The translations under genes were made by a program, and so were the position numbers. A stretch of DNA of 9,238 nt. Origin: a virus. Its lineage: Duplodnaviria; Heunggongvirae; Uroviricota; Caudoviricetes. This document shows, in pieces, positions 1 to 8,202 of this stretch (position 1 is the first letter of the stretch; the number at the start of each line of letters is the position of its first letter). The stretch lies in IMG/VR virus record IMGVR_UViG_2703718854_000002. One strand, written 5' to 3'. The notes under the pieces were generated by a model. It saw only the letters and a list, made by a program, of their open reading frames with translations, had not been told where the DNA came from and did no database searches.

Positions 1-798
1 TTAATGAACATTCGTCGCCGAAAACGAGTCTGTATCATTAGCGTGATGCAGTCTCTGCAAAGGATCTTGTTGATAAAATTGGCAGAAACGTTGCCACAAT
101 GAAGGGAAACGAGGAGCAAAAAGTTCTGGGGCGCTAAAGAAATATTCAGAAAGTACGGCAAAACATTCAGCAGGATCGCTGGCTGCATAAGCATCAATGC
201 TCGCCGCATTCTCGCCAACCAATTCGATTTCTTCCTGAATGTTGTTCATTGCAGCATGAAGATCGTGTTCCCAGCCAGCAACCTCACGCAACGGAATAAA
301 GGGAACTCCGCTGGCGCGATCGCCGTTACGGGTGTCCAGCTTATGAGCGACTTCATGAATAATCAGGTTAAAACCAGAAGCATCAAAAGAATCTTGTATA
401 TCCAACCAGTTCAAAACGATAGGCCCTTGCTGCCAGCTCTGACCTGACTGAACAATACGTTGGTTATGCACCAGACCGATATCGTCTTCCCATTCATCAT
501 CGACCACAAATGGCGCAGGATAAATTAAGACTTCATGAAAACCATCCAGCCATTCCAGTCCTAACTCCAGAACGGGTAGGCAAAATAGAAGTGCTATCCG
601 GCAGCTTCTTAATGAATCCAGTTCAAAGCCCTGTAAAGGAACAAGCCGCTTTTGCTGTAAAAAACGTTCGGCAAGAGTGACTAATTTGCTTTGTTCCTGT
701 TCCGTCAGACACGTTAAAAGGGGGATCGATAGTGCTTCCTGCCAGGGAAGGGCAGTTTGATGTGCTGATTCTTGTACTTTCCAGGGCCACTTAATCAT
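1..798 (-). CDS. mtfA: MtfA (Mlc titration factor A), zinc-dependent peptidase
   Basis: Minus-strand ORF with TAA stop at 1-3. Product begins [11 protein letters not shown] and carries an HEVAH (HExxH) zinc-peptidase motif; recognised from memory as enterobacterial MtfA/YeeI. The ORF track extends to 837 ([13 protein letters not shown]-), but the conserved N-terminus starts at the ATG at 796-798. Confidence 0.85.
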
Positions 799-891
799 CG
801 TTTTGCTCGCAAACTCGTCACTTGAACAAAATTGCACGGACAGGGACTGTTAAAATGCCAAATTTCCTGGCATCATGGCAACCATCTGAAC

Positions 892-1096: not shown

Positions 1097-1777
1097 TCAC
1101 ATTTTTCTGTTTAAAGTTGGGCTAATTTTTACTTTCCTGTCGTATACCAACACCTGTGATTCAGTTTTGTGACCACTGAATTTTTGCTTATCACGGCCAC
1201 TTCCTTCATAGTCAGAAATGCCTTTCGCCTTCAGATCATGGAACGTGCAGTCTAACGGTCTGCCAATTTTTTCAGCAGCCGCATTCCTAGCCTTTCTCCA
1301 GGCTTCATTGAAACCTTTATAGGAATATCGCTCTCCGTACATGGTTTTGATGACAGCGCCATCTTCCCCTGATTTCCTGCAAAGATTGACAGCGGAGTGC
1401 AAGCGGTCTGTCCACGCTTTAATCTGCTTAACTCCAGTTTTACCCTGTTGAATGAAAATTCCTTTATCCATTATCTGATTCCAGTCCATTTTCAGAACAT
1501 CGGAAACCCTCGCTGCACAGAGATAAGCAATTTCCATTGCGGCTTTTACCGGATCAGTAGCACAGTCATAAATTGCTAAATACTCTTCATCCGTAATGTA
1601 TCGGTCGCGCTGAGGTTTAGGGTATTTATCGACGCCTACGCATGGGTTGCCTGGCACAAATCCACGTTGATATCCCCACCTGTAAACGCGTGACATCGAA
1701 CTATGCTCATGGTTAGCCTGTACGGATGCAATGAAAGAGTTCGGCATCACTGAACCAAAAGATAAGGCGATGTTCAT
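1097..1777 (-). pseudogene. int: Lambda-family tyrosine integrase, C-terminal catalytic domain only (N-terminally truncated remnant)
   Basis: Product aligns by eye to the lambda Int catalytic domain: RDRYITDEEYLAIYDCA, CAARVSD (Arg I), GKTGVK (Lys), FHDLKAK (His present, Arg II position is Lys), GHKTES (His II), LVYDRK (Tyr). An in-frame stop (tca at 1781-1783) lies two codons upstream of the ORF-track Met. The first ~27 residues (1697-1777) are antisense to the endolysin 5' end, so integrase-derived sequence begins near 1696. No room for arm-binding or core-binding domains. Confidence 0.7.
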
Positions 1778-2261
1778 TGCTCAGGTAGGACATGAATCGG
1801 CGGGATTCTCTGCGCTGGTGGAGAACTTCAACTACACGCCTGCCGCATTACTGACGACGTTTGGACGCCGGGTAACGAACTACCAGGCCTCAATGCTTGG
1901 ACGTGCCAACGGTAAGCCAGCAAGTCAGGAAGCTATCGCGAACCTGGTATACAGCAACCGCCTGGGTAATAAAGCTGCTGGTGATGGCTGGAAATACCGT
2001 GGGCGCGGATTAATTCAGATTACCGGTCTCACCAATTACCGTGATTGCGGCAATGGTCTGAAGCTTGACCTGGTTACTAACCCTGAACTGCTGGAGAAAG
2101 ACATCAATGCTGCGCGTTCTGCTGCATGGTTCTACGCCTCCAAAGGTTGCCTGAAGTACACCGATGACCTGGTGCGCATCACTCAGATTATCAATGGCGG
2201 TCAGAACGGCATTAACGACAGACGCGTGCGTTACGGCAAAGCGAAAGCGGTGATTGCATGA
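1731..2261 (+). CDS. Phage endolysin, glycoside hydrolase family 19 (chitinase-like lysozyme)
   Basis: FIAQVGHESAGFSALVENFNY carries two Glu spaced as in the GH19 catalytic pair, and YRGRGLIQITGLTNY follows. It closely resembles Salmonella phage SPN1S-type endolysin as I recall it. The frame is open only from 1686 (stop taa at 1683-1685), so ~25-30 N-terminal residues of the full-length family member appear lost. Stop overlaps the next start (ATGA at 2258-2261). Confidence 0.75.
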   Translation: MKEFGITEPKDKAMFIAQVGHESAGFSALVENFNYTPAALLTTFGRRVTNYQASMLGRANGKPASQEAIANLVYSNRLGNKAAGDGWKYRGRGLIQITGLTNYRDCGNGLKLDLVTNPELLEKDINAARSAAWFYASKGCLKYTDDLVRITQIINGGQNGINDRRVRYGKAKAVIA

Positions 2262-2530
2262 GCATTGTAGAAATCATCATTGGTGTCATTGGTGCTATCT
2301 GTGTTGCCGCTGCTGGTGGGTTTGGTCTTGGCCATATTCGCGGAACCAGCAAAGCAGAAGCGAAAGCCGATCAACAACGCACTGAAGAAAACGCAGCGGC
2401 GAAGGTTGCAGTGGCAGAACGTCAGGCAGAAGTCACCAGAGAGGCCAGTAATGTACAGCAGAAAGTTAATCATATGCCTGGCGACGACGTTGATCGCGAG
2501 CTGCGCACAAACTGGACCCGTAAGGGTTGA
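2258..2530 (+). CDS. Rz-like i-spanin (N-terminal TM helix plus charged coiled-coil region)
   Basis: ATGA overlap with endolysin stop. Hydrophobic N-terminus IIIGVIGAICVAAAGGFGLG followed by Ala/Glu/Lys/Gln-rich segment. Position immediately after endolysin is typical for Rz. Confidence 0.5.
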   Translation: MSIVEIIIGVIGAICVAAAGGFGLGHIRGTSKAEAKADQQRTEENAAAKVAVAERQAEVTREASNVQQKVNHMPGDDVDRELRTNWTRKG

Positions 2531-2681
2531 GGTAGTCGATACGGCGTGCGACTGGGTTCATCCTATCTATGCAACAGATAATGACTGGGATGTGTTGGAT
2601 AAGCAGACCAAGCGCGACATCCTGACGCATAACAAAGCGTGGCAGGCAAATTGTCAGAAGGAGAAACTCGAAATCAAGTAG
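2451..2681 (+). CDS. Rz1-like o-spanin lipoprotein, +1 frame, overlapping and extending beyond Rz
   Basis: ATG at 2451 preceded by GAGAGG (2439-2444) with 6-nt spacer. Signal peptide MYSRKLIICLATTLIASC with lipobox IAS|C. Starts inside Rz and ends 151 bp after it (overlapped, not embedded, architecture). The ORF track's longer 2280 start is a TTG in the same frame. Confidence 0.5.
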   Translation: MYSRKLIICLATTLIASCAQTGPVRVEVVDTACDWVHPIYATDNDWDVLDKQTKRDILTHNKAWQANCQKEKLEIK

Positions 2682-3049
2682 CAAAGCGGTTAGACCGCAG
2701 CCGAAAGGCAATGCAGCAGTAATGATGCTGCCCTGAGTCGCCATTGAGCGAGCCTGTATAGCGACGGGTCAAGGTTCTTATATCAAAATAAGCTCCGGTA
2801 GAGCAGCGCGAACGCCAGACGCGCACCGGTTATAAGCGGCGATGAAGCGACAGCAACTCAAGGGCATGAGCGTGGCCACTCCGGGAAGTGGTGAGGCATT
2901 TAAATGCAGCCTAGATAATTAGAATGGGAATGTTTTATGAAAAACTTATTCAGTACATCAGATGAAATGCTAATGAAACGATCGTCTAATGTTAAAAGAC
3001 AAGAGCTGCTTGAGATTTGCAACCGATTCGTATGTTTCTCGTTTGTTAA

Positions 3050-3067
3050 GCCGGGTGCAACCCCGGC
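3050..3067 (-). terminator. GC-rich hairpin (GCCGGG-tgcaac-CCCGGC) just downstream of the Cys-cluster gene stop
   Basis: Perfect 6-bp inverted repeat with 6-nt loop, 8 nt beyond the stop at 3076-3078 on the minus strand. Only a weak U tract follows, so termination is uncertain. Confidence 0.3.
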
Positions 3068-3075
3068 ATCGGATG

Positions 3076-3609
3076 CTAATTTAAAGGAGCAATCGGGTCT
3101 GTCTTCGAATTCGCAGCGAATTGAATTAATCCAATCATAGTTGCACGAATCTTATCAAACTCTCTGGTTTTAACTACCTCGGTCATAGCTGCTGTAACGT
3201 CGACATTTGAAGAGCAAAAGCCTTCTTTTGTCGGAATCGAAATCTGAACGGTCATCCCATTTGCAATTGAACTGCTTAAAACACGTAAAGGCTCTGGATC
3301 AAGCAATGTAGTAACTTGACCATCATTTACTGGCTGAAAGCACAGAGCTTTGCCATCGAAGCGAATAAGAACACCACAACGATCAGGCCTCATTTCCGGA
3401 CCGATACCTAAAACTCTCCATCCGCAGTACCACGTACGACATAGAGATGGGCGATCATTATAAATCGAACATCCGCCCTGTGCTTTAAGATGCTGACATG
3501 GCACTCCAGCAAATTTTTTAAGCTCTGGCTCTTCGATTCTCAGGGATTTACAACAAACAGAACATGAACCACATTTTCTATCTTTGATTAGCAATTTTTC
3601 CAGACTCAT
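3076..3609 (-). CDS. YkgJ/UPF0153-family cysteine-cluster protein (CxxCxxCC putative Zn/Fe-chelating domain; FliB-like)
   Basis: N-terminal CGSCSVCC (exact CxxCxxCC), then C-QHL and GGCSIYNDRPSLCRTWYCGW, matching the YkgJ-family pattern as I recall it. Strong SD AAGGAGG 8 nt upstream of the ATG at 3609. The C-terminal ~90 residues have no motif I recognise. Confidence 0.55.
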   Translation of the reverse strand: MSLEKLLIKDRKCGSCSVCCKSLRIEEPELKKFAGVPCQHLKAQGGCSIYNDRPSLCRTWYCGWRVLGIGPEMRPDRCGVLIRFDGKALCFQPVNDGQVTTLLDPEPLRVLSSSIANGMTVQISIPTKEGFCSSNVDVTAAMTEVVKTREFDKIRATMIGLIQFAANSKTDPIAPLN

Positions 3610-3811
3610 TTCCCATGCCTCCTTTTTGAGGTGTCACTCAACAAAATGAACAAAGATAATTTTGTAATTTGATACTTACTGGCATTGCTGGCGGCTATTG
3701 CTGGAGTATAAAGCGCATCTCACGCGCACTTCAAAGAAAGTCTTTCAGCTGTGAGCCTGGGCACGCCGTTAGCCGGAATTGGCGATTTAGCAATGCAGAG
3801 GGAGATTAACC

Positions 3812-4108
3812 ATGGCATCCAATTCACCTTGGCATAGCCTCTACAATTCCAAGCGTTGGTACCGACTCCGCTATCACCAGCTTCAGAAGCAACCTCTTTG
3901 TGAGTTCCACCTCCGGCGCAATCAGGTGATAGCGGCAACGATCGTTGACCATGTCATCCCGCACAAAGGAGACGATAGGCTCTTTCATGATCCGGATAAT
4001 CTTCAGTCACTTTGCAAACGTTGCCACGACTCGGTAAAGCAGAGGATGGAGAAGGGCGGAACGGTCATGGACAGCTACAAGGCGCTCATTGTCAGGAACA
4101 AAGCTTAA
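3812..4108 (+). CDS. Phage HNH endonuclease
   Basis: C-x-F-H ... VDHVIPH ... N-LQSLCKRCH pattern (HNH beta-beta-alpha metal finger with flanking Cys/His). RBS-like GAGGGAG upstream of ATG 3812. Small HNH proteins are typical of lambdoid packaging modules. Confidence 0.6.
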   Translation: MASNSPWHSLYNSKRWYRLRYHQLQKQPLCEFHLRRNQVIAATIVDHVIPHKGDDRLFHDPDNLQSLCKRCHDSVKQRMEKGGTVMDSYKALIVRNKA

Positions 4109-4763
4109 TATTAATAATTCAGGTGGTTTAGGCCAAATATCATTTACAACGTCAATAGGAAAAGAAGTTGGCATCGCTCAAATAAACTATACCGGAACCT
4201 CTACGCCTCTTGTTATCGGCTCAGGGGGTACTTTAAACCCTAATGCTATTTTCTTCTTCACAAACCCGACAGTGACAAGTGAAAATGGAGGAGTTCAATC
4301 TTTTCAGATTTACAATAATCAGGTATTACCTGGTGTTGCAAGTTCACAGTCACTAGGGAGCGCGTCGTTTAGATGGACACAGCTGTACGCAGATACAGCA
4401 ACAATCAGTACATCTGATATAAGAAACAAGACCGATATTGTTGATATAAATGATATAGAAAGGAGGGTCGCAATAAGACTGAAAGGACTCATTCGGCGAT
4501 ATAAGCTTAAAAATGCCGTGATGAGCAAGGGAAATGACAAAGCTCGTTACCATATTGGAATAATTGCGCAGGAAGTTGAGAAAGCCTTTGCAGAAGAAGG
4601 ACTAAATGGTTTTGATTATGGATTGCTTTGTTATGACTCATGGGGCCATGAATCTGTGCTTTACTCTGAAGATGGGGTGATACAGAAGCCAGAAATTATT
4701 GCCGGAGAGGGGTATTCAGTTCGCTATGAAGAATTGCTTTGTTTTATAATATCAGCCATTTAG
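4089..4763 (+). pseudogene. Tail fibre/tailspike C-terminal fragment with intramolecular chaperone (peptidase S74-like) domain
   Basis: STSDIRNKTDIVDI...RYHIGIIAQEVEKAFAEEG resembles the autoproteolytic C-terminal chaperone domain of phage tail fibres. The frame is open only from 4038 (stop taa at 4035-4037) and the only start is a TTG at 4089, which overlaps the HNH gene, so the N-terminal part of the fibre is absent. Confidence 0.5.
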
Positions 4764-4808: not shown

Positions 4809-5795
4809 TTAGACGACTCTTCGCAAAATCGGTATTGCAGTAAATATTTTAACAATGATAATTGAAGATGCAATGTAAAATACTGCTGCCAGAGGAATAC
4901 CCCATACATAATTTGTAATTGGTAGGTACTTCCATGAAGTGAAAATAATTATTGGGTGAACTAGATAAATGCCAAATGCATGCTTTGAAATTATTTTTAT
5001 TATTGGGCTTGTCAAATCAGCTAAATTCTTAGCATAACCAATGCAAGCAAATGTAGTACTTATCGCCGTAATAGCTACCATTGGGCTGAAGTTCTTCAAG
5101 CTCATTCCTTGGTATTCACCATGAACTATCCCTTTATTAACATAAATGGTAACAACGGAAAGTGTCAATGAAAGGAGAGCAAATACAATCCTGTACTTAA
5201 TTATTAAATCTTCCTTGCGTGCAGCTATGTAACCTGCAAAAACATAGAGCATTAAATAACTTGCAAATGGAACGTTTATCTTCGGAGCGGGTATTCCTAT
5301 TGCATTAAGCTCTGGGTATAAGGATGTGCTGTAAAACAGAACTGCGAATATCAAAAGGCTATAGCGCGTTCTTATTTCTCTACATCCCATAACTATCATT
5401 GGAACAAAAAGATAAATTGCAATGTAATCGTACATAAACCAAAGGTGTATGCTTGATGGTTTCATAGGGCTAAAACTATCTATGCCTGCATTTTTAAAAA
5501 GTATCAAATATGCTGCGTAAATTACCCACCAAAACGCCAGTGGAATTACAAGGAGATTTATTCCTTTAAGGATGAAGCCTTTAAACTCAATTTCTTTATT
5601 TGCATAGAGAAAGCCAGTTATGACAATGAAAATACCAATGCATTGTTTCGATATTGCGCTGTAAATATTGGCCCACTCCCAGTCAGGAGCGAGTTTAGCC
5701 CCGAAAGGTCCGGCACTGGCATGTAGTAAAACTACCAGCAATATAGCAATAAAACGTGCAACTACAACTCCGTTATTAATGTCTGTTTTTGCCAT
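4809..5795 (-). CDS. Acyltransferase-3 family integral membrane O-acetyltransferase (Oac-like O-antigen acetylase)
   Basis: 328-aa polytopic membrane protein. N-terminus VVVARFIAILLVVLLHASAGPF carries the R-x(n)-H motif of the acyltransferase-3 family. Same strand as, and immediately downstream of, the gtr cluster. Visibly AT-rich coding sequence. Confidence 0.7.
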   Translation of the reverse strand: MAKTDINNGVVVARFIAILLVVLLHASAGPFGAKLAPDWEWANIYSAISKQCIGIFIVITGFLYANKEIEFKGFILKGINLLVIPLAFWWVIYAAYLILFKNAGIDSFSPMKPSSIHLWFMYDYIAIYLFVPMIVMGCREIRTRYSLLIFAVLFYSTSLYPELNAIGIPAPKINVPFASYLMLYVFAGYIAARKEDLIIKYRIVFALLSLTLSVVTIYVNKGIVHGEYQGMSLKNFSPMVAITAISTTFACIGYAKNLADLTSPIIKIISKHAFGIYLVHPIIIFTSWKYLPITNYVWGIPLAAVFYIASSIIIVKIFTAIPILRRVV

Positions 5796-5827
5796 TTAGA
5801 TCAGCCCACTAATGAGTTTGCAAAGGT

Positions 5828-5851
5828 GATGCCAACAAAAGTGTTGGCATC
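5828..5851. repeat. Perfect 24-bp palindrome GATGCCAACA-aaag-TGTTGGCATC in the gtr-type/acetyltransferase intergenic spacer
   Basis: Read directly from the sequence: 10-bp arms, 4-nt loop, 8 nt downstream of the glucosyltransferase stop and 33 nt upstream of the acetyltransferase start. Confidence 0.6.
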
Positions 5852-5858
5852 AAAATAA

Positions 5859-7277
5859 TTAGTTCACTATAACAATTGCTTGTCCATTTCGCTCTTTCAA
5901 TATCATGTTTTGAGCGTTGAATCTCACAGTTCCATCTGATTCTATTTTTTTACAACCAGAATCGCACGGGTAGATACTATACCCCAGTTTTAAATGGGAG
6001 ACTTTATCCATGAAAGGATTGCCAGTATAGAAGTATCTATTCATATTGTATATGAAAGGAAATGCTTTTCTGTATGGTTCTGATGCTGAACTGGGTTTGT
6101 TTATTTTTAGATAAATTTTCTGGTAATCTTTATTTTGCAGCGATAAGACTGCATTTGTACGCATTAAGACATTATCAATTCTGGAATAATTTATATTTTG
6201 AAGCATGAAGAAACAGCTTACAAAAATAAATGATATTACCATCGGCACAACTGATACCCAATCAAGCCTTTTAAAGGTGATATTAGTAAAAATAATCATT
6301 GTCGATGCCATGATTATCACTCCGCCCGAAACCATAGAACGACTGGTCACTGGTGGATTTTTTAGAATCAGTAGCATGCCAAAGGAAAGGAAGATAATAA
6401 ACAAGTAAAAAACAACACTCGTTAATTTTACAGGCAAGCTTAATCCTTTTTTTAATAAAATCACAGCAAAAGGAAGCGTAACATACAAAAGTAAAATTTT
6501 TCCTATAAACCCATGGAATAAATCATAAAAGATTTCCTTGAATTTAAGATAGGAGGTGAACATGTTTTTTAACGTATACATGTCAATGCCCAGCATTTCA
6601 GAGCGCATCTTTGTATACTCACTCATATCATCGGGGTTAAAAATCACCTTCTTGTATAGTGCGTATGCAACAAGCATTAGAACGCCAGCAATGACGCAAA
6701 ACTTAATAGCACTAAAAATAGTTGCTTTACCTGACATCATGCTGTGTATGGCTAGTATCAATATAATTGATAAGTATACTGCAATAGATGACTGATAAGA
6801 TGAAATTGCCAGTATTAGCAGAATGAATGCTGTAGCATAAAAGAGCTTTGAAGAAACTCCGAGATAACAGTAGTACGCTGCCATCGCAGCCATGCCTACA
6901 GATGCGGACATCAAAATTGCATCATACTGATAGGCAAGATTATTTATAAAAAATGGGGATAGTAAAAGTGATAAAGAAAATGATGCTTTCGCAAAACTCA
7001 ACTCGCTACCAAAAAATACACTGCTGATTTTGTGTGCAGGGTAAATGAGGAACAGCGCTGCAATCATCATAGTAAATGGAGATAATATTAGAATATGACC
7101 GTTGCCAATGAGATTAGACAGGACTGTTGAAAAATATCTACCATTATGATCCCATCCATATGGTATCTCTATACGCAAAAAATCATCTACGTATAAATGT
7201 CCACCGATAATGAAAGGGAGCACATATAAAAAACCAACAAACAGTAAAATTCCTAAATTTTTAGAATCGTTAGTCAT
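5859..7277 (-). CDS. Serotype-specific O-antigen glucosyltransferase (GtrC/Gtr-type family), polytopic membrane protein
   Basis: Large, AT-rich multi-TM ORF immediately downstream of gtrB in a gtrA-gtrB-gtr(type) arrangement. Start chosen at ATG 7277 (MTNDSKNLG-), which has AGGA 9 nt upstream; the ORF track's longer start is ATG 7295 (MSGKTAM-), which lacks an SD. Either way it overlaps the gtrB 3' end. Confidence 0.65.
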
Positions 7278-8202
7278 TGCTGTCTTTCCTGACATTTTTT
7301 AGAACATATTTTGGACGTTGTTTGGTTTCAATATAAATTCTGCCGATATATTCACCTAACACACCGATTCCAATCAACTGTATTCCGCCAAGGAAAAGGA
7401 TTGAAACAAGGAGCGAAGGGTAACCACGAACTGGGTTGCCAAAGGCAAGAGTGTTTACAATCATCCACGCGCCATATAAAAAAGATAGACCGGCAACAAA
7501 CAATCCAATGTATGTCCACATCCTCAGCGGGAATGTGGAGAAACTTGTTATACCTTCAAGTGCTAGGTTCCACAACTTCCAGCCGTTGAATTTAGAATCA
7601 CCTGCGACACGTTCAGCACGCACGTATTCTACAACATCAGTTTTTCCGCCAACCCACGAAAGAACCCCCTTCATAAATAGATTTCTTTCGGGTAGCTGTT
7701 TGATATTCTCTACGACCTCTCGTGACATCAGACGGAAGTCACCAACATTCTCTTCAATTTTTGGATTGCTGATTTTATTATGCAGCTTATAAAACCACTC
7801 AGCAGATTTCCGCTTTAAGCGGCTGTCAGTTGAACGGTCTGAGCGCTTAGCCAACACCATATCTGCACCAGCCTGCCATTTTTCGATCAGATTAGGAATG
7901 ACCTCTATTGGATCCTGAAGGTCGACATCAATCGGGATAACCGCTTCACCAGTGGCATGATCAAGGCCAGCGAAAAGAGCTGGTTCTTTACCGAAGTTTC
8001 TGGTGAAGGATAAAGGCATAACAAGCGGATCAGCAACGGCAAGTGCATTAATAATAGATTCGGTCGCATCTTTGCTGCCGTCATTGATGAATACTATCTC
8101 TACTTCATGATTTTGAAGTTCTTCAAATTCACGAACCGTTTTATAGAAGATCGGTATTGTAGCCTCTTCGTTAAATACCGGAACGACAAGAGAAATCTTC
8201 AT
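7270..8202 (-). CDS. gtrB: Bactoprenol glucosyltransferase GtrB (GT2 family)
   Basis: [14 protein letters not shown]-terminus, DVDLQDP (DxD) motif, two C-terminal TM segments. ATGA start/stop overlap with gtrA at 8199-8202. Confidence 0.9.

Follow-up and report, generated by a model that had tools for sequence, protein, structure and literature searches.

A two-gene accessory cassette encoding a YkgJ-type cysteine-cluster protein in lambdoid prophages

Introduction

Why do lambdoid prophages carry, next to their lysis genes and on the opposite strand, a gene for a small protein whose amino-terminal part is dominated by conserved cysteines? The question is raised by a viral DNA stretch of 9,238 nucleotides (nt) (IMG/VR record IMGVR_UViG_2703718854_000002; hereafter the window, meaning the whole stretch analysed), in which an earlier note, made from the letters alone, had singled out the gene at 3076..3609. 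We find that this gene, here called the main gene, forms a compact cassette with a small convergent gene, and that its product joins a divergent YkgJ-type cysteine domain to a family-specific alpha/beta domain. The cassette is very probably an optional accessory element with a metal-binding product. To the fuller explanation, a two-gene moron cassette whose main product is a metal-dependent modifying enzyme acting in the lysogen, we give slightly more credence than doubt.

The CxxCxxCC/YkgJ superfamily is very large and almost uncharacterised, and its only two studied members, FliB and DpdM, are both unconventional methyltransferases. We found no literature on the subfamily described here; the studies of those two proteins were the only relevant ones to come up.

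Results

The main gene encodes a small, two-domain cysteine-cluster protein

The features of the main gene and of its product are as follows.

3076..3609, minus strand: main gene for the cysteine-cluster protein (open reading frame [ORF] list; 177 amino acids [aa], ATG start, 19.5 kDa, isoelectric point [pI] 8.7)
3618-3623, minus strand: Shine-Dalgarno sequence AGGAGG, 8 nt 5' of the main-gene ATG
3705..3734, minus strand: candidate sigma-70 promoter TTGAAG-18-TATACT (consensus scan only, 9/12 matches)
3050..3067, minus strand: GC-rich hairpin GCCGGG/CCCGGC, 8 nt after the main-gene stop, terminator-like with a weak T tract
3418..3576, minus strand: YkgJ-type CxxCxxCC domain, residues 12-64 (Pfam, PHROGs, hhalign, conservation)
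3379..3390, minus strand: R-P-D linker motif, residues 74-77, joining both domains (98-99% conserved)
3079..3378, minus strand: family-specific alpha/beta domain, residues 78-177 (model predicted local distance difference test [pLDDT] score about 86-97)

The ORF at 3076..3609 is a real, intact gene. Its exact 177-aa product is recorded in 404 blocks of a public assembly collection, and full-length homologues ranging from 24% to 73% identity keep the conserved cysteines and other residues, which argues that the gene is real and under selection. At the 50% identity level, homologue clusters number 3653 at E<1e-10 and 6798 at E<1e-3, and full-length ones (170-200 aa) number 140 at E<1e-30. The consensus ribosome-binding site reported in the earlier note is present, and divergent homologues are also preceded by GAGG-type sites. 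The candidate promoter, read from 3734 to 3705, straddles the junction between the insert and its right linker (see below). Downstream, terminator-like hairpins are common 3' of the stop among family loci, and at the equivalent place in L028, L035, L041, L015 and L011 hairpins with T-runs are clearer than the one in the window. As the note had stated, the gene runs opposite to the surrounding phage genes, since the endolysin, Rz/Rz1, HNH and tail-fibre genes all lie on the plus strand; gtrABC and an acyltransferase gene (4809-8561) share the minus strand with it. The only Rfam match in the window is a tRNA-Ser. No hydrophobic segment is present, the highest 19-residue Kyte-Doolittle mean being 0.83, and the product is predicted to be soluble and cytoplasmic. 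Its halves differ in charge, the N-terminal one being basic (pI 9.0) and the C-terminal one acidic (pI 5.2).

The cysteines are arranged as C13-x2-C16-x2-C19-C20, followed by C38, C47, C57 and C62; in a set of 172 family members, each of the eight reaches 97-99% conservation. Positions with strong conservation in the same set are R11, C13, G14, C16, C19, C20, I25, K32, C38, G46, C47, I49, Y50, R53, P54, C57, C62, W64, R65, R74, P75, D76 and G130, so that nearly all conservation lies within the cysteine domain and the R-P-D linker. The second half-motif of the superfamily, C...G-C-x-I-Y-x-x-R-P-x-x-C-R, is likewise present, with C38, G46, C47, I49, Y50, R53, P54 and C57 conserved.

Profile searches placed this domain close to YkgJ but just short of a formal Pfam assignment. 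PF03692 (CxxCxxCC) matches residues 12-59 with E=1.9e-4 and 22.5 bits, which falls short of its gathering cut-off of 23 bits; 21/22 close homologues match it at E<1, and among 148 family representatives only 29 do so at E<=0.01, the best with E=7.1e-5. Because of the score below the cut-off and this small fraction, the family appears to be a divergent branch that is formally outside Pfam coverage. When the family profile was compared by hhalign with a purpose-built profile of YkgJ orthologues, residues 12-64 aligned over 53 columns with 95.9% probability (E=5.8e-9), and seven of the eight cysteines were paired (C13/16/19/20/38/47/57 with YkgJ C7/10/13/14/58/71/81); with the single K-12 YkgJ sequence as partner, the comparison gave only 21%, over 15 columns. 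On the strength of the profile-profile alignment, we regard homology of the cysteine domain to YkgJ as established at the sequence level. The YkgJ-family pattern that the note had recognised therefore stands, in agreement with the NCBI name of the protein, "YkgJ family cysteine cluster protein", and what the proposed profile check did not deliver is a Pfam assignment above threshold. The best library match is phrog_9155 (E=1.4e-16, residues 9-84), and NCBIfam holds no family that matches the main protein at E<=1. A Pfam hint of PflM (DUF5447), at E=0.12 in 1/22 members, was taken as noise.

Because the eight cysteines are invariant and both FliB and DpdM offer precedents, they most probably bind two metal centres, iron-sulphur (Fe-S) and/or zinc. 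The basic and aromatic residues R11, K32, Y50, R53, W64, R65 and R74, together with D76, would form an active or binding surface.

The C-terminal part had been described as an extension of about 90 residues of unknown type. It amounts to about 100 residues and has no match among Pfam, NCBIfam and PADLOC models, nor in sequence and profile searches of the PDB. AlphaFold2, run with a 22-sequence alignment, returned a mean pLDDT of 81, with residues 70-177 at 86-97 and lower confidence for the cysteine domain, which was modelled free of metal. The structure check proposed in the note thus yields a confident alpha/beta model, in the order beta-beta-alpha-alpha-beta-beta-alpha-alpha, without a known fold neighbour: Foldseek against viral models retrieved only uncharacterised cyanophage and metagenomic phage proteins. 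One sequence search with the C-terminal half alone recovered only fragments of the same protein and no other domain context. Conservation in this domain comes down essentially to G130 and a loose S-x-P-(T/G) motif. The only extra Pfam domain among the scanned members is a SEC-C zinc tail, in 1/22 and 2/148; by eye, such a tail (CPCGSG..Y/FK.CHG) follows the alpha/beta domain in P0023, P0062 and P0069.

The gene recurs in one slot, antisense to the late operon

The note had asked whether homologues recur in the same slot of related prophages, and they do. In all 10 loci that encode the exact protein, the main gene is opposite to the late genes, and in the 8/10 that retain both modules it is flanked by a lysis cassette (holin-holin-GH19-Rz-Rz1) on one side and by packaging genes on the other; the remaining pair, L004 and L007, represent the window's own serU remnant, from which the packaging genes have been deleted. 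Homologues at 42-52% identity keep both slot and orientation in prophages built from quite different modules, with either GH19 or Phage_lysozyme lysozymes and with terminases of the Nu1/GpA, DUF1441/GpA, Terminase_4/TerL, Hendrixvirinae TerS and P22 types, so that packaging modules of the lambda, HK97 and P22 types are all represented; the slot is occupied by homologues as distant as 40% identity. A relative is present in 282 viral contigs of IMG/VR, and the 41 in which the match is near full length were compared with a reference set. The gene is flanked by lysis genes 3' and terminase or portal genes 5', all on the opposite strand, in 26/41; truncated contigs show lysis genes only (4/41) or terminase only (2/41), 2/41 have another arrangement, and 7/41 were left unclassified by the reference set, including L064 (terminase and portal on the same strand). 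Overall, the gene occupies the lysis-terminase slot, on the strand opposite to the late operon, in 32/35 classifiable contigs. Of the five complete E. coli genomes with a homologue, SCU-124 was examined; there the gene belongs to a P22-like prophage, lies 24 bp from the terS start and is named in RefSeq "YkgJ family cysteine cluster protein".

The gene is often found directly upstream of the small terminase gene, a position that would suit a non-enzymatic zinc-cluster regulator. Its cysteine domain would bind nucleic acid or a host protein and tune prophage maintenance, late expression or packaging, and its C-terminal domain would serve for oligomerisation or partner binding. The basic N-terminal half with its conserved R11, K32, R53, R65 and R74 and a C-terminal domain without catalytic-looking invariant residues agree with such a role, as would the PflM hint, PflM being a lysogeny-maintenance protein, if that match were more than the noise for which we took it. 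We consider a pure regulator of this kind improbable.

The same slot invites a further explanation. In lambda, the right end of the genome enters the cell first, and in cos-type phages the slot lies at that end, so the main protein could be a first-injected anti-defence factor, expressed at once to counter restriction or another immunity of the host. The gene is indeed 0.5-5 kb from the terminase/cos side in prophages of the lambda and HK97 types, and lytic-phage relatives sit among early or replication genes beside DNA methyltransferases; the relative in a Rhizobium phage, for example, is among early genes near a DNA methyltransferase. However, P22-like headful packagers, which have no fixed DNA end, use the same slot, the promoter evidence is weak, and the order of entry is extrapolated from lambda. 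We judge this reading very unlikely.

In Enterobacter-type prophages (L001 7646-9103, L003 8330-9787, L012 8658-10115, and L046-L055), the gene directly next to the cassette, on one side or the other, often encodes a 485-aa protein that has no Pfam family; this gene does not occur in the window and may be another accessory gene of the same slot.

The cassette has sharp boundaries and is nearly identical across genera

The borders of the cassette could be drawn by comparing prophages that carry it with phages that do not.

2901..3708, no strand: inserted cassette proper, two genes (~808 bp, G+C content [GC] 41%)
2792..2900, no strand: left linker, intergenic, in many lambdoid phages without the cassette (DNA search)
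3709..3758, no strand: right linker, in intergenic DNA of unrelated lambdoid phages (DNA search)

Compared with its copies in eight independent prophages that look intact, the main gene of the window shows a single difference in 534 nt, whereas identity outside the gene is 72-84% over 200 bp upstream and ~78% over 400 bp downstream. A block of ~967 bp (window ~2792-3758) is essentially identical in the window and four independent prophages, and directly outside it identity drops to 72-85% or homology is lost. When 50,697 deposited phage genomes were searched by a sensitive DNA method, the block ends (2792-2900 and 3709-3758) were matched without the interior, as short, unannotated intergenic stretches in many lambdoid phages, among them mEp213, HK639, vB_EcoS-733R5, Stx2c phages, and Hafnia and Klebsiella phages. 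Because only the ends occur in phages that have no cassette, the true insert is ~2901-3708. Its GC is 41.0%, against 50-52% in the flanking lysis and HNH genes.

The linkers, which recur at unrelated positions in lambdoid phages, may be recombination joints or a regulatory site, and, being shared, they would permit exchange through homologous recombination. With a GC of 62%, the left linker includes a CCACTTCCCGGAGTGG hairpin; in mEp213 it is found ~100 bp ahead of a gene for an N-like antiterminator, and in vB_EcoS-733R5 it comes after the lysis genes. In HK639, the right linker follows the terminator of the major tail gene.

The chromosomal flank of the window is 99.7% identical to E. coli, whereas pncB of the L005 host is only 78.7% identical to its E. 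coli counterpart, and the two gene copies differ by 1 nt in 534. The identical protein is labelled "MULTISPECIES [Enterobacteriaceae]" at NCBI, and close variants are mostly named from Enterobacter hormaechei. On the basis of the pncB divergence and this label, a cassette that is 99.8% identical is present in different genera. It is nevertheless sparse: homologues occur in 5/5426 complete E. coli genomes, and plasmids essentially never carry the gene. A near-identical block with divergent flanks, low GC and patchy occurrence bears out the description of the gene as optional prophage cargo, and as a genetic element the cassette looks like a textbook moron, a concept said to go back to Juhala and Hendrix.

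No enterobacterial phage among the 50,697 deposited genomes carries the gene, and the relatives found there are all distant (cyanophages, one Rhizobium phage and one marine virus only), yet it is present in the 282 IMG/VR contigs and in hundreds of bacterial assemblies. This gap may reflect sampling bias, or such prophages may rarely be isolated as plaque formers. A Shigella flexneri sequence of 41,686 bp deposited as a plasmid, NZ_CP012733.1, contains a homologue in three tblastn pieces, possibly frameshifted (compare L052), and is probably an excised or mis-assigned prophage genome.

A convergent small gene is linked to the main gene

The second gene of the cassette is absent from the earlier note and is new here.

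2937..3140, plus strand: small ORF of 67 aa (MKNLFSTSDEMLMKRSS...) with an S-D-x-x-L-M motif, overlapping the 3' end of the main gene by 65 nt

Locus after locus, a late-strand ORF of 59-68 aa converges on the main gene, usually with a 3' overlap of 34-65 nt. Its N-terminal part contains S-D-x-x-L-M and, 10-15 residues further on, h-L-x-K-h and an aromatic residue. The first motif lies 103-121 nt past the main-gene stop in about 45 loci, and this spacing holds even where the main proteins are only 40-46% identical. The codons vary by locus (TCA/TCT or AGT/AGC for Ser, CTN or TTR for Leu, GAT or GAC for Asp), and because Ser and Leu switch between codon classes, conservation acts at the protein level; the same switching (TCN/AGY and CTN/TTR) rules out a nucleotide element. 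Several of these ORFs are preceded by GGAG-type ribosome-binding sites. A hidden Markov model (HMM) built from 15 sequences and searched against every ORF of at least 25 aa in all loci matched only ORFs at this position, and it recovered L011 (E=1e-3) and L060 (E=3.5e-4), on which it had not been trained. Conservation is absent from the C-terminal third, which overlaps both the terminator hairpin and the last part of the main gene, and function probably resides in roughly the first 45 residues. No PHROGs or Pfam family matches the small proteins, which, where annotated, are named "hypothetical protein"; the ORF was not found beside the most distant relatives, L018, L019, L059 and L064.

A strictly linked, convergent, late-strand gene overlapping the 3' end of its neighbour is also what one might expect of a lysogen-expressed anti-phage effector, acting in superinfection exclusion or abortive infection, that would block a late step of incoming phages and for which the small protein and the antisense late transcript would serve as self-antidote when the prophage itself is induced. 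This explanation also agrees with carriage as opposite-strand cargo in a slot known for accessory genes, with the high mobility of the cassette among phages and genera, and with its survival in a decayed remnant. Against it, PADLOC-DB 2.0 returned 0 families at E<=1, which rules out a known defence protein, no toxic-domain signature is present, and relatives occur without the partner in head or replication modules and in strictly lytic cyanophages. We regard an anti-phage function as unlikely, while ranking it first among the alternatives to a modifying enzyme.

The window is a decayed prophage remnant

The remaining features of the window identify it as a lambdoid prophage in decay, located at the serU tRNA in a chromosome of the E. 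coli type.

1-837, minus strand: mtfA (with the tRNA, 99.7% identical to E. coli)
892-981, strand not given: tRNA-Ser(CGA) (99.7% identical to E. coli)
1097-1777, minus strand: truncated integrase, overlapping the endolysin
1731-2261, plus strand: GH19 endolysin, N-terminally truncated (176 aa versus 209 aa in intact relatives)
2258-2530, plus strand: Rz spanin
Embedded in 2280-2681, plus strand: Rz1 spanin
3812-4108, plus strand: HNH endonuclease, overlapping the start of the tail-fibre ORF
4089-4763, plus strand: tail-fibre C-terminal fragment (Peptidase_S74 part only)
4809-8561, minus strand: Acyl_transf_3 acyltransferase, gtrC (GtrC-type glucosyltransferase), gtrB and gtrA, an intact O-antigen modification module
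After 8561, strand not given: UmuD-like gene

Holins, early genes, and head or tail genes are gone from the remnant, and two deletion joints are apparent, at the integrase/endolysin overlap and at the overlap of HNH with the tail-fibre fragment. Because a second copy of the tRNA's 3' part (917-996), 94% identical, is found about 8.4 kb to the right (L004 4163-4243, ~130-210 bp past the right end of the window), the island of about 8.4 kb is bounded by att-like direct repeats at serU. The whole island was not found in 5426 complete E. coli genomes.

The O-antigen modification module (GC 34-44%) has been kept in the remnant along with the cassette, and the earlier note had linked the cysteine-cluster protein to these surface-modification genes. 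That link does not survive comparison. Homology between the window and intact prophages extends from ~1728 to 3771 and then stops, so the adjacency is a product of deletion; in intact prophages, the gene is flanked by lysis genes and by HNH, terminase and other late genes, and a functional link to gtrABC and the acyltransferase is ruled out.

A prophage that has lost so much, its integrase and endolysin truncated, its holin, head and tail genes missing and the late promoter that would drive the small ORF gone, could carry the cassette simply as a decaying passenger, functionless in this host and intact only as the remnant is young. Both cassette genes have, however, stayed whole while holin, head and tail genes were lost, the main gene is 1 nt away from the copies in intact prophages, and at least 20 family positions are under strong purifying selection. 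This makes a mere passenger extremely unlikely.

Discussion

The scheme that we infer, in its metal binding, expression pattern, enzymatic activity and partner role alike, starts from the position of the main gene, which would be expressed in the lysogen from its own ribosome-binding site and a candidate promoter and end at a terminator-like hairpin. The cysteine domain would hold the two predicted metal sites, the alpha/beta domain would recognise a target or partner, and the protein as a whole would act as a small metal-dependent enzyme that modifies a host or phage macromolecule. During lytic growth, late transcription would read through the small gene and then antisense into the main gene, opposing its expression. 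Because late transcription crosses the small gene into the antisense strand of the main gene, the two would be expressed reciprocally, and the small late protein would be a partner or antagonist of the main protein. An activity of the FliB/DpdM type is put first because both characterised relatives N-methylate a primary aliphatic amine; as a specific assignment, we hold it possible and on the doubtful side. More tentatively still, and with a better chance of being wrong than right, the two genes may form a module in which a FliB/DpdM-like lysogen protein is switched off or redirected by the small late protein, that is, a modification or immunity toggle between lysogeny and lysis that has spread between genera by recombination at the short linkers.

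Several observations weigh against a modifying enzyme made in the lysogen. The near-lack of invariant residues in the C-terminal domain fits a binding or scaffold function better than catalysis, FliB's large C-terminal region has no counterpart in the main protein, and no scanned family member matches DUF3109, methyltransferase or S-adenosylmethionine (SAM)-binding models. The promoter matches are weak and not conserved, with no consistent counterpart in divergent homologues and none in several, and in P22-like contexts the intergenic DNA upstream of the main gene is 24 nt only. Distant relatives share the strand of structural or replication genes: a 34%-identical protein in L018 is encoded between portal and protease, L064 has a similar head-module arrangement, and in cyanophage S-CAM3 a short version separates the genes for the gp45 clamp and the gp44 clamp loader. 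Lysogen-specific expression is for this reason not a property of the whole family. Linkage is the one line of evidence that ties the small ORF functionally to the main gene, and retention of the cassette in the remnant could be chance.

Membership in the CxxCxxCC/YkgJ superfamily is already part of public annotation. What appears to be undescribed is a phage-specific, two-domain subfamily with a C-terminal domain lacking any family or structural neighbour, its strictly linked convergent S-D-x-x-L-M small gene, and a cassette with sharp boundaries and linkers that is nearly identical across genera. Small (177 aa) and abundant (thousands of clusters at 50% identity), the subfamily offers a tractable entry to the role of this fold, and the linked small gene provides a concrete, testable hypothesis of regulation or antagonism. 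Carriers of the cassette include prophages of Enterobacter, Klebsiella, Citrobacter and E. coli, all of clinical relevance. Should the protein prove to modify a host or phage macromolecule or to confer immunity, lysogenic conversion would gain a new type of function; failing both, the cassette is still a well-defined case of moron exchange across genera.

Comparison with known systems

FliB is about 400 aa long and encoded beside fliC. In Salmonella, it is a flagellin lysine N-methyltransferase with eight conserved cysteines, whose N-terminal cysteine motif binds a [4Fe-4S] cluster that is sensitive to oxygen and indispensable for the methylation of lysine (PMC8598068). The main protein has an N-terminal cysteine-rich motif of the same general type, again with eight conserved cysteines, but FliB has CX4CX3CC and a long extra region, whereas the 177-aa protein has CX2CX2CC. 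No flagellin gene occurs in the window or in 9/10 exact-protein loci. Size, cysteine spacing, neighbours and the lack of an NCBIfam match rule out membership among FliB-like flagellin methylases. In L005, a degraded prophage, a 358-aa flagellin gene (4983-6059; Flagellin_N and Flagellin_C) lies ~4 kb from the cassette, beside an IS605-type OrfB.

DpdM is closer in setting, as a phage protein described as a YkgJ homologue, which methylates the aminomethyl group of preQ1 in DNA (PMC10516641). It has a CxxxCxxCC motif, and its eight cysteines are predicted to form two metal pockets, one from three motif cysteines and a distant one, the other from the fourth motif cysteine and three others (PMC10516641). 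Both it and the main protein are small, phage-encoded and equipped with a CxxCxxCC-type motif and further cysteines. DUF3109 was not matched by 22 members at E<=1 or by 148 members at E<=0.01, and no dpdA, queC/D/E or queF was seen in the window or among Pfam-annotated neighbours in 20 loci. The main protein thus lies outside both the FliB and the DpdM/DUF3109 families, the latter distinction being drawn from the DUF3109 profile and gene context rather than from direct sequence comparison.

YkgJ itself shares CxxCxxCC followed by C...GCxIYxxRPxxCRx(F/W), with eight invariant cysteines in both families. The insert after CC is ~43 residues in YkgJ versus 17 here, and the present family is phage-borne rather than chromosomal and has an extra alpha/beta domain of 100 residues. 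YkgJ (PF03692, "putative zinc- or iron-chelating domain") is uncharacterised, so that the name gives no function. The closest library family, phrog_9155, groups the protein with cyanophage and other phage relatives; it covers the cysteine domain and linker but not the C-terminal domain, and has no function assigned.

As a genetic element, the cassette is best compared with lambda bor, which follows Rz on the opposite strand, is expressed in lysogens and encodes an outer-membrane lipoprotein. The position and orientation of the cassette are those of bor, and the likeness extends to the place after Rz/Rz1 and before cos/terminase, antisense orientation, GC below that of the flanks, optional occurrence and a terminator-like hairpin. 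The protein described here differs from Bor in being, by prediction, cytoplasmic, is unrelated to it in sequence, and travels with a convergent small gene.

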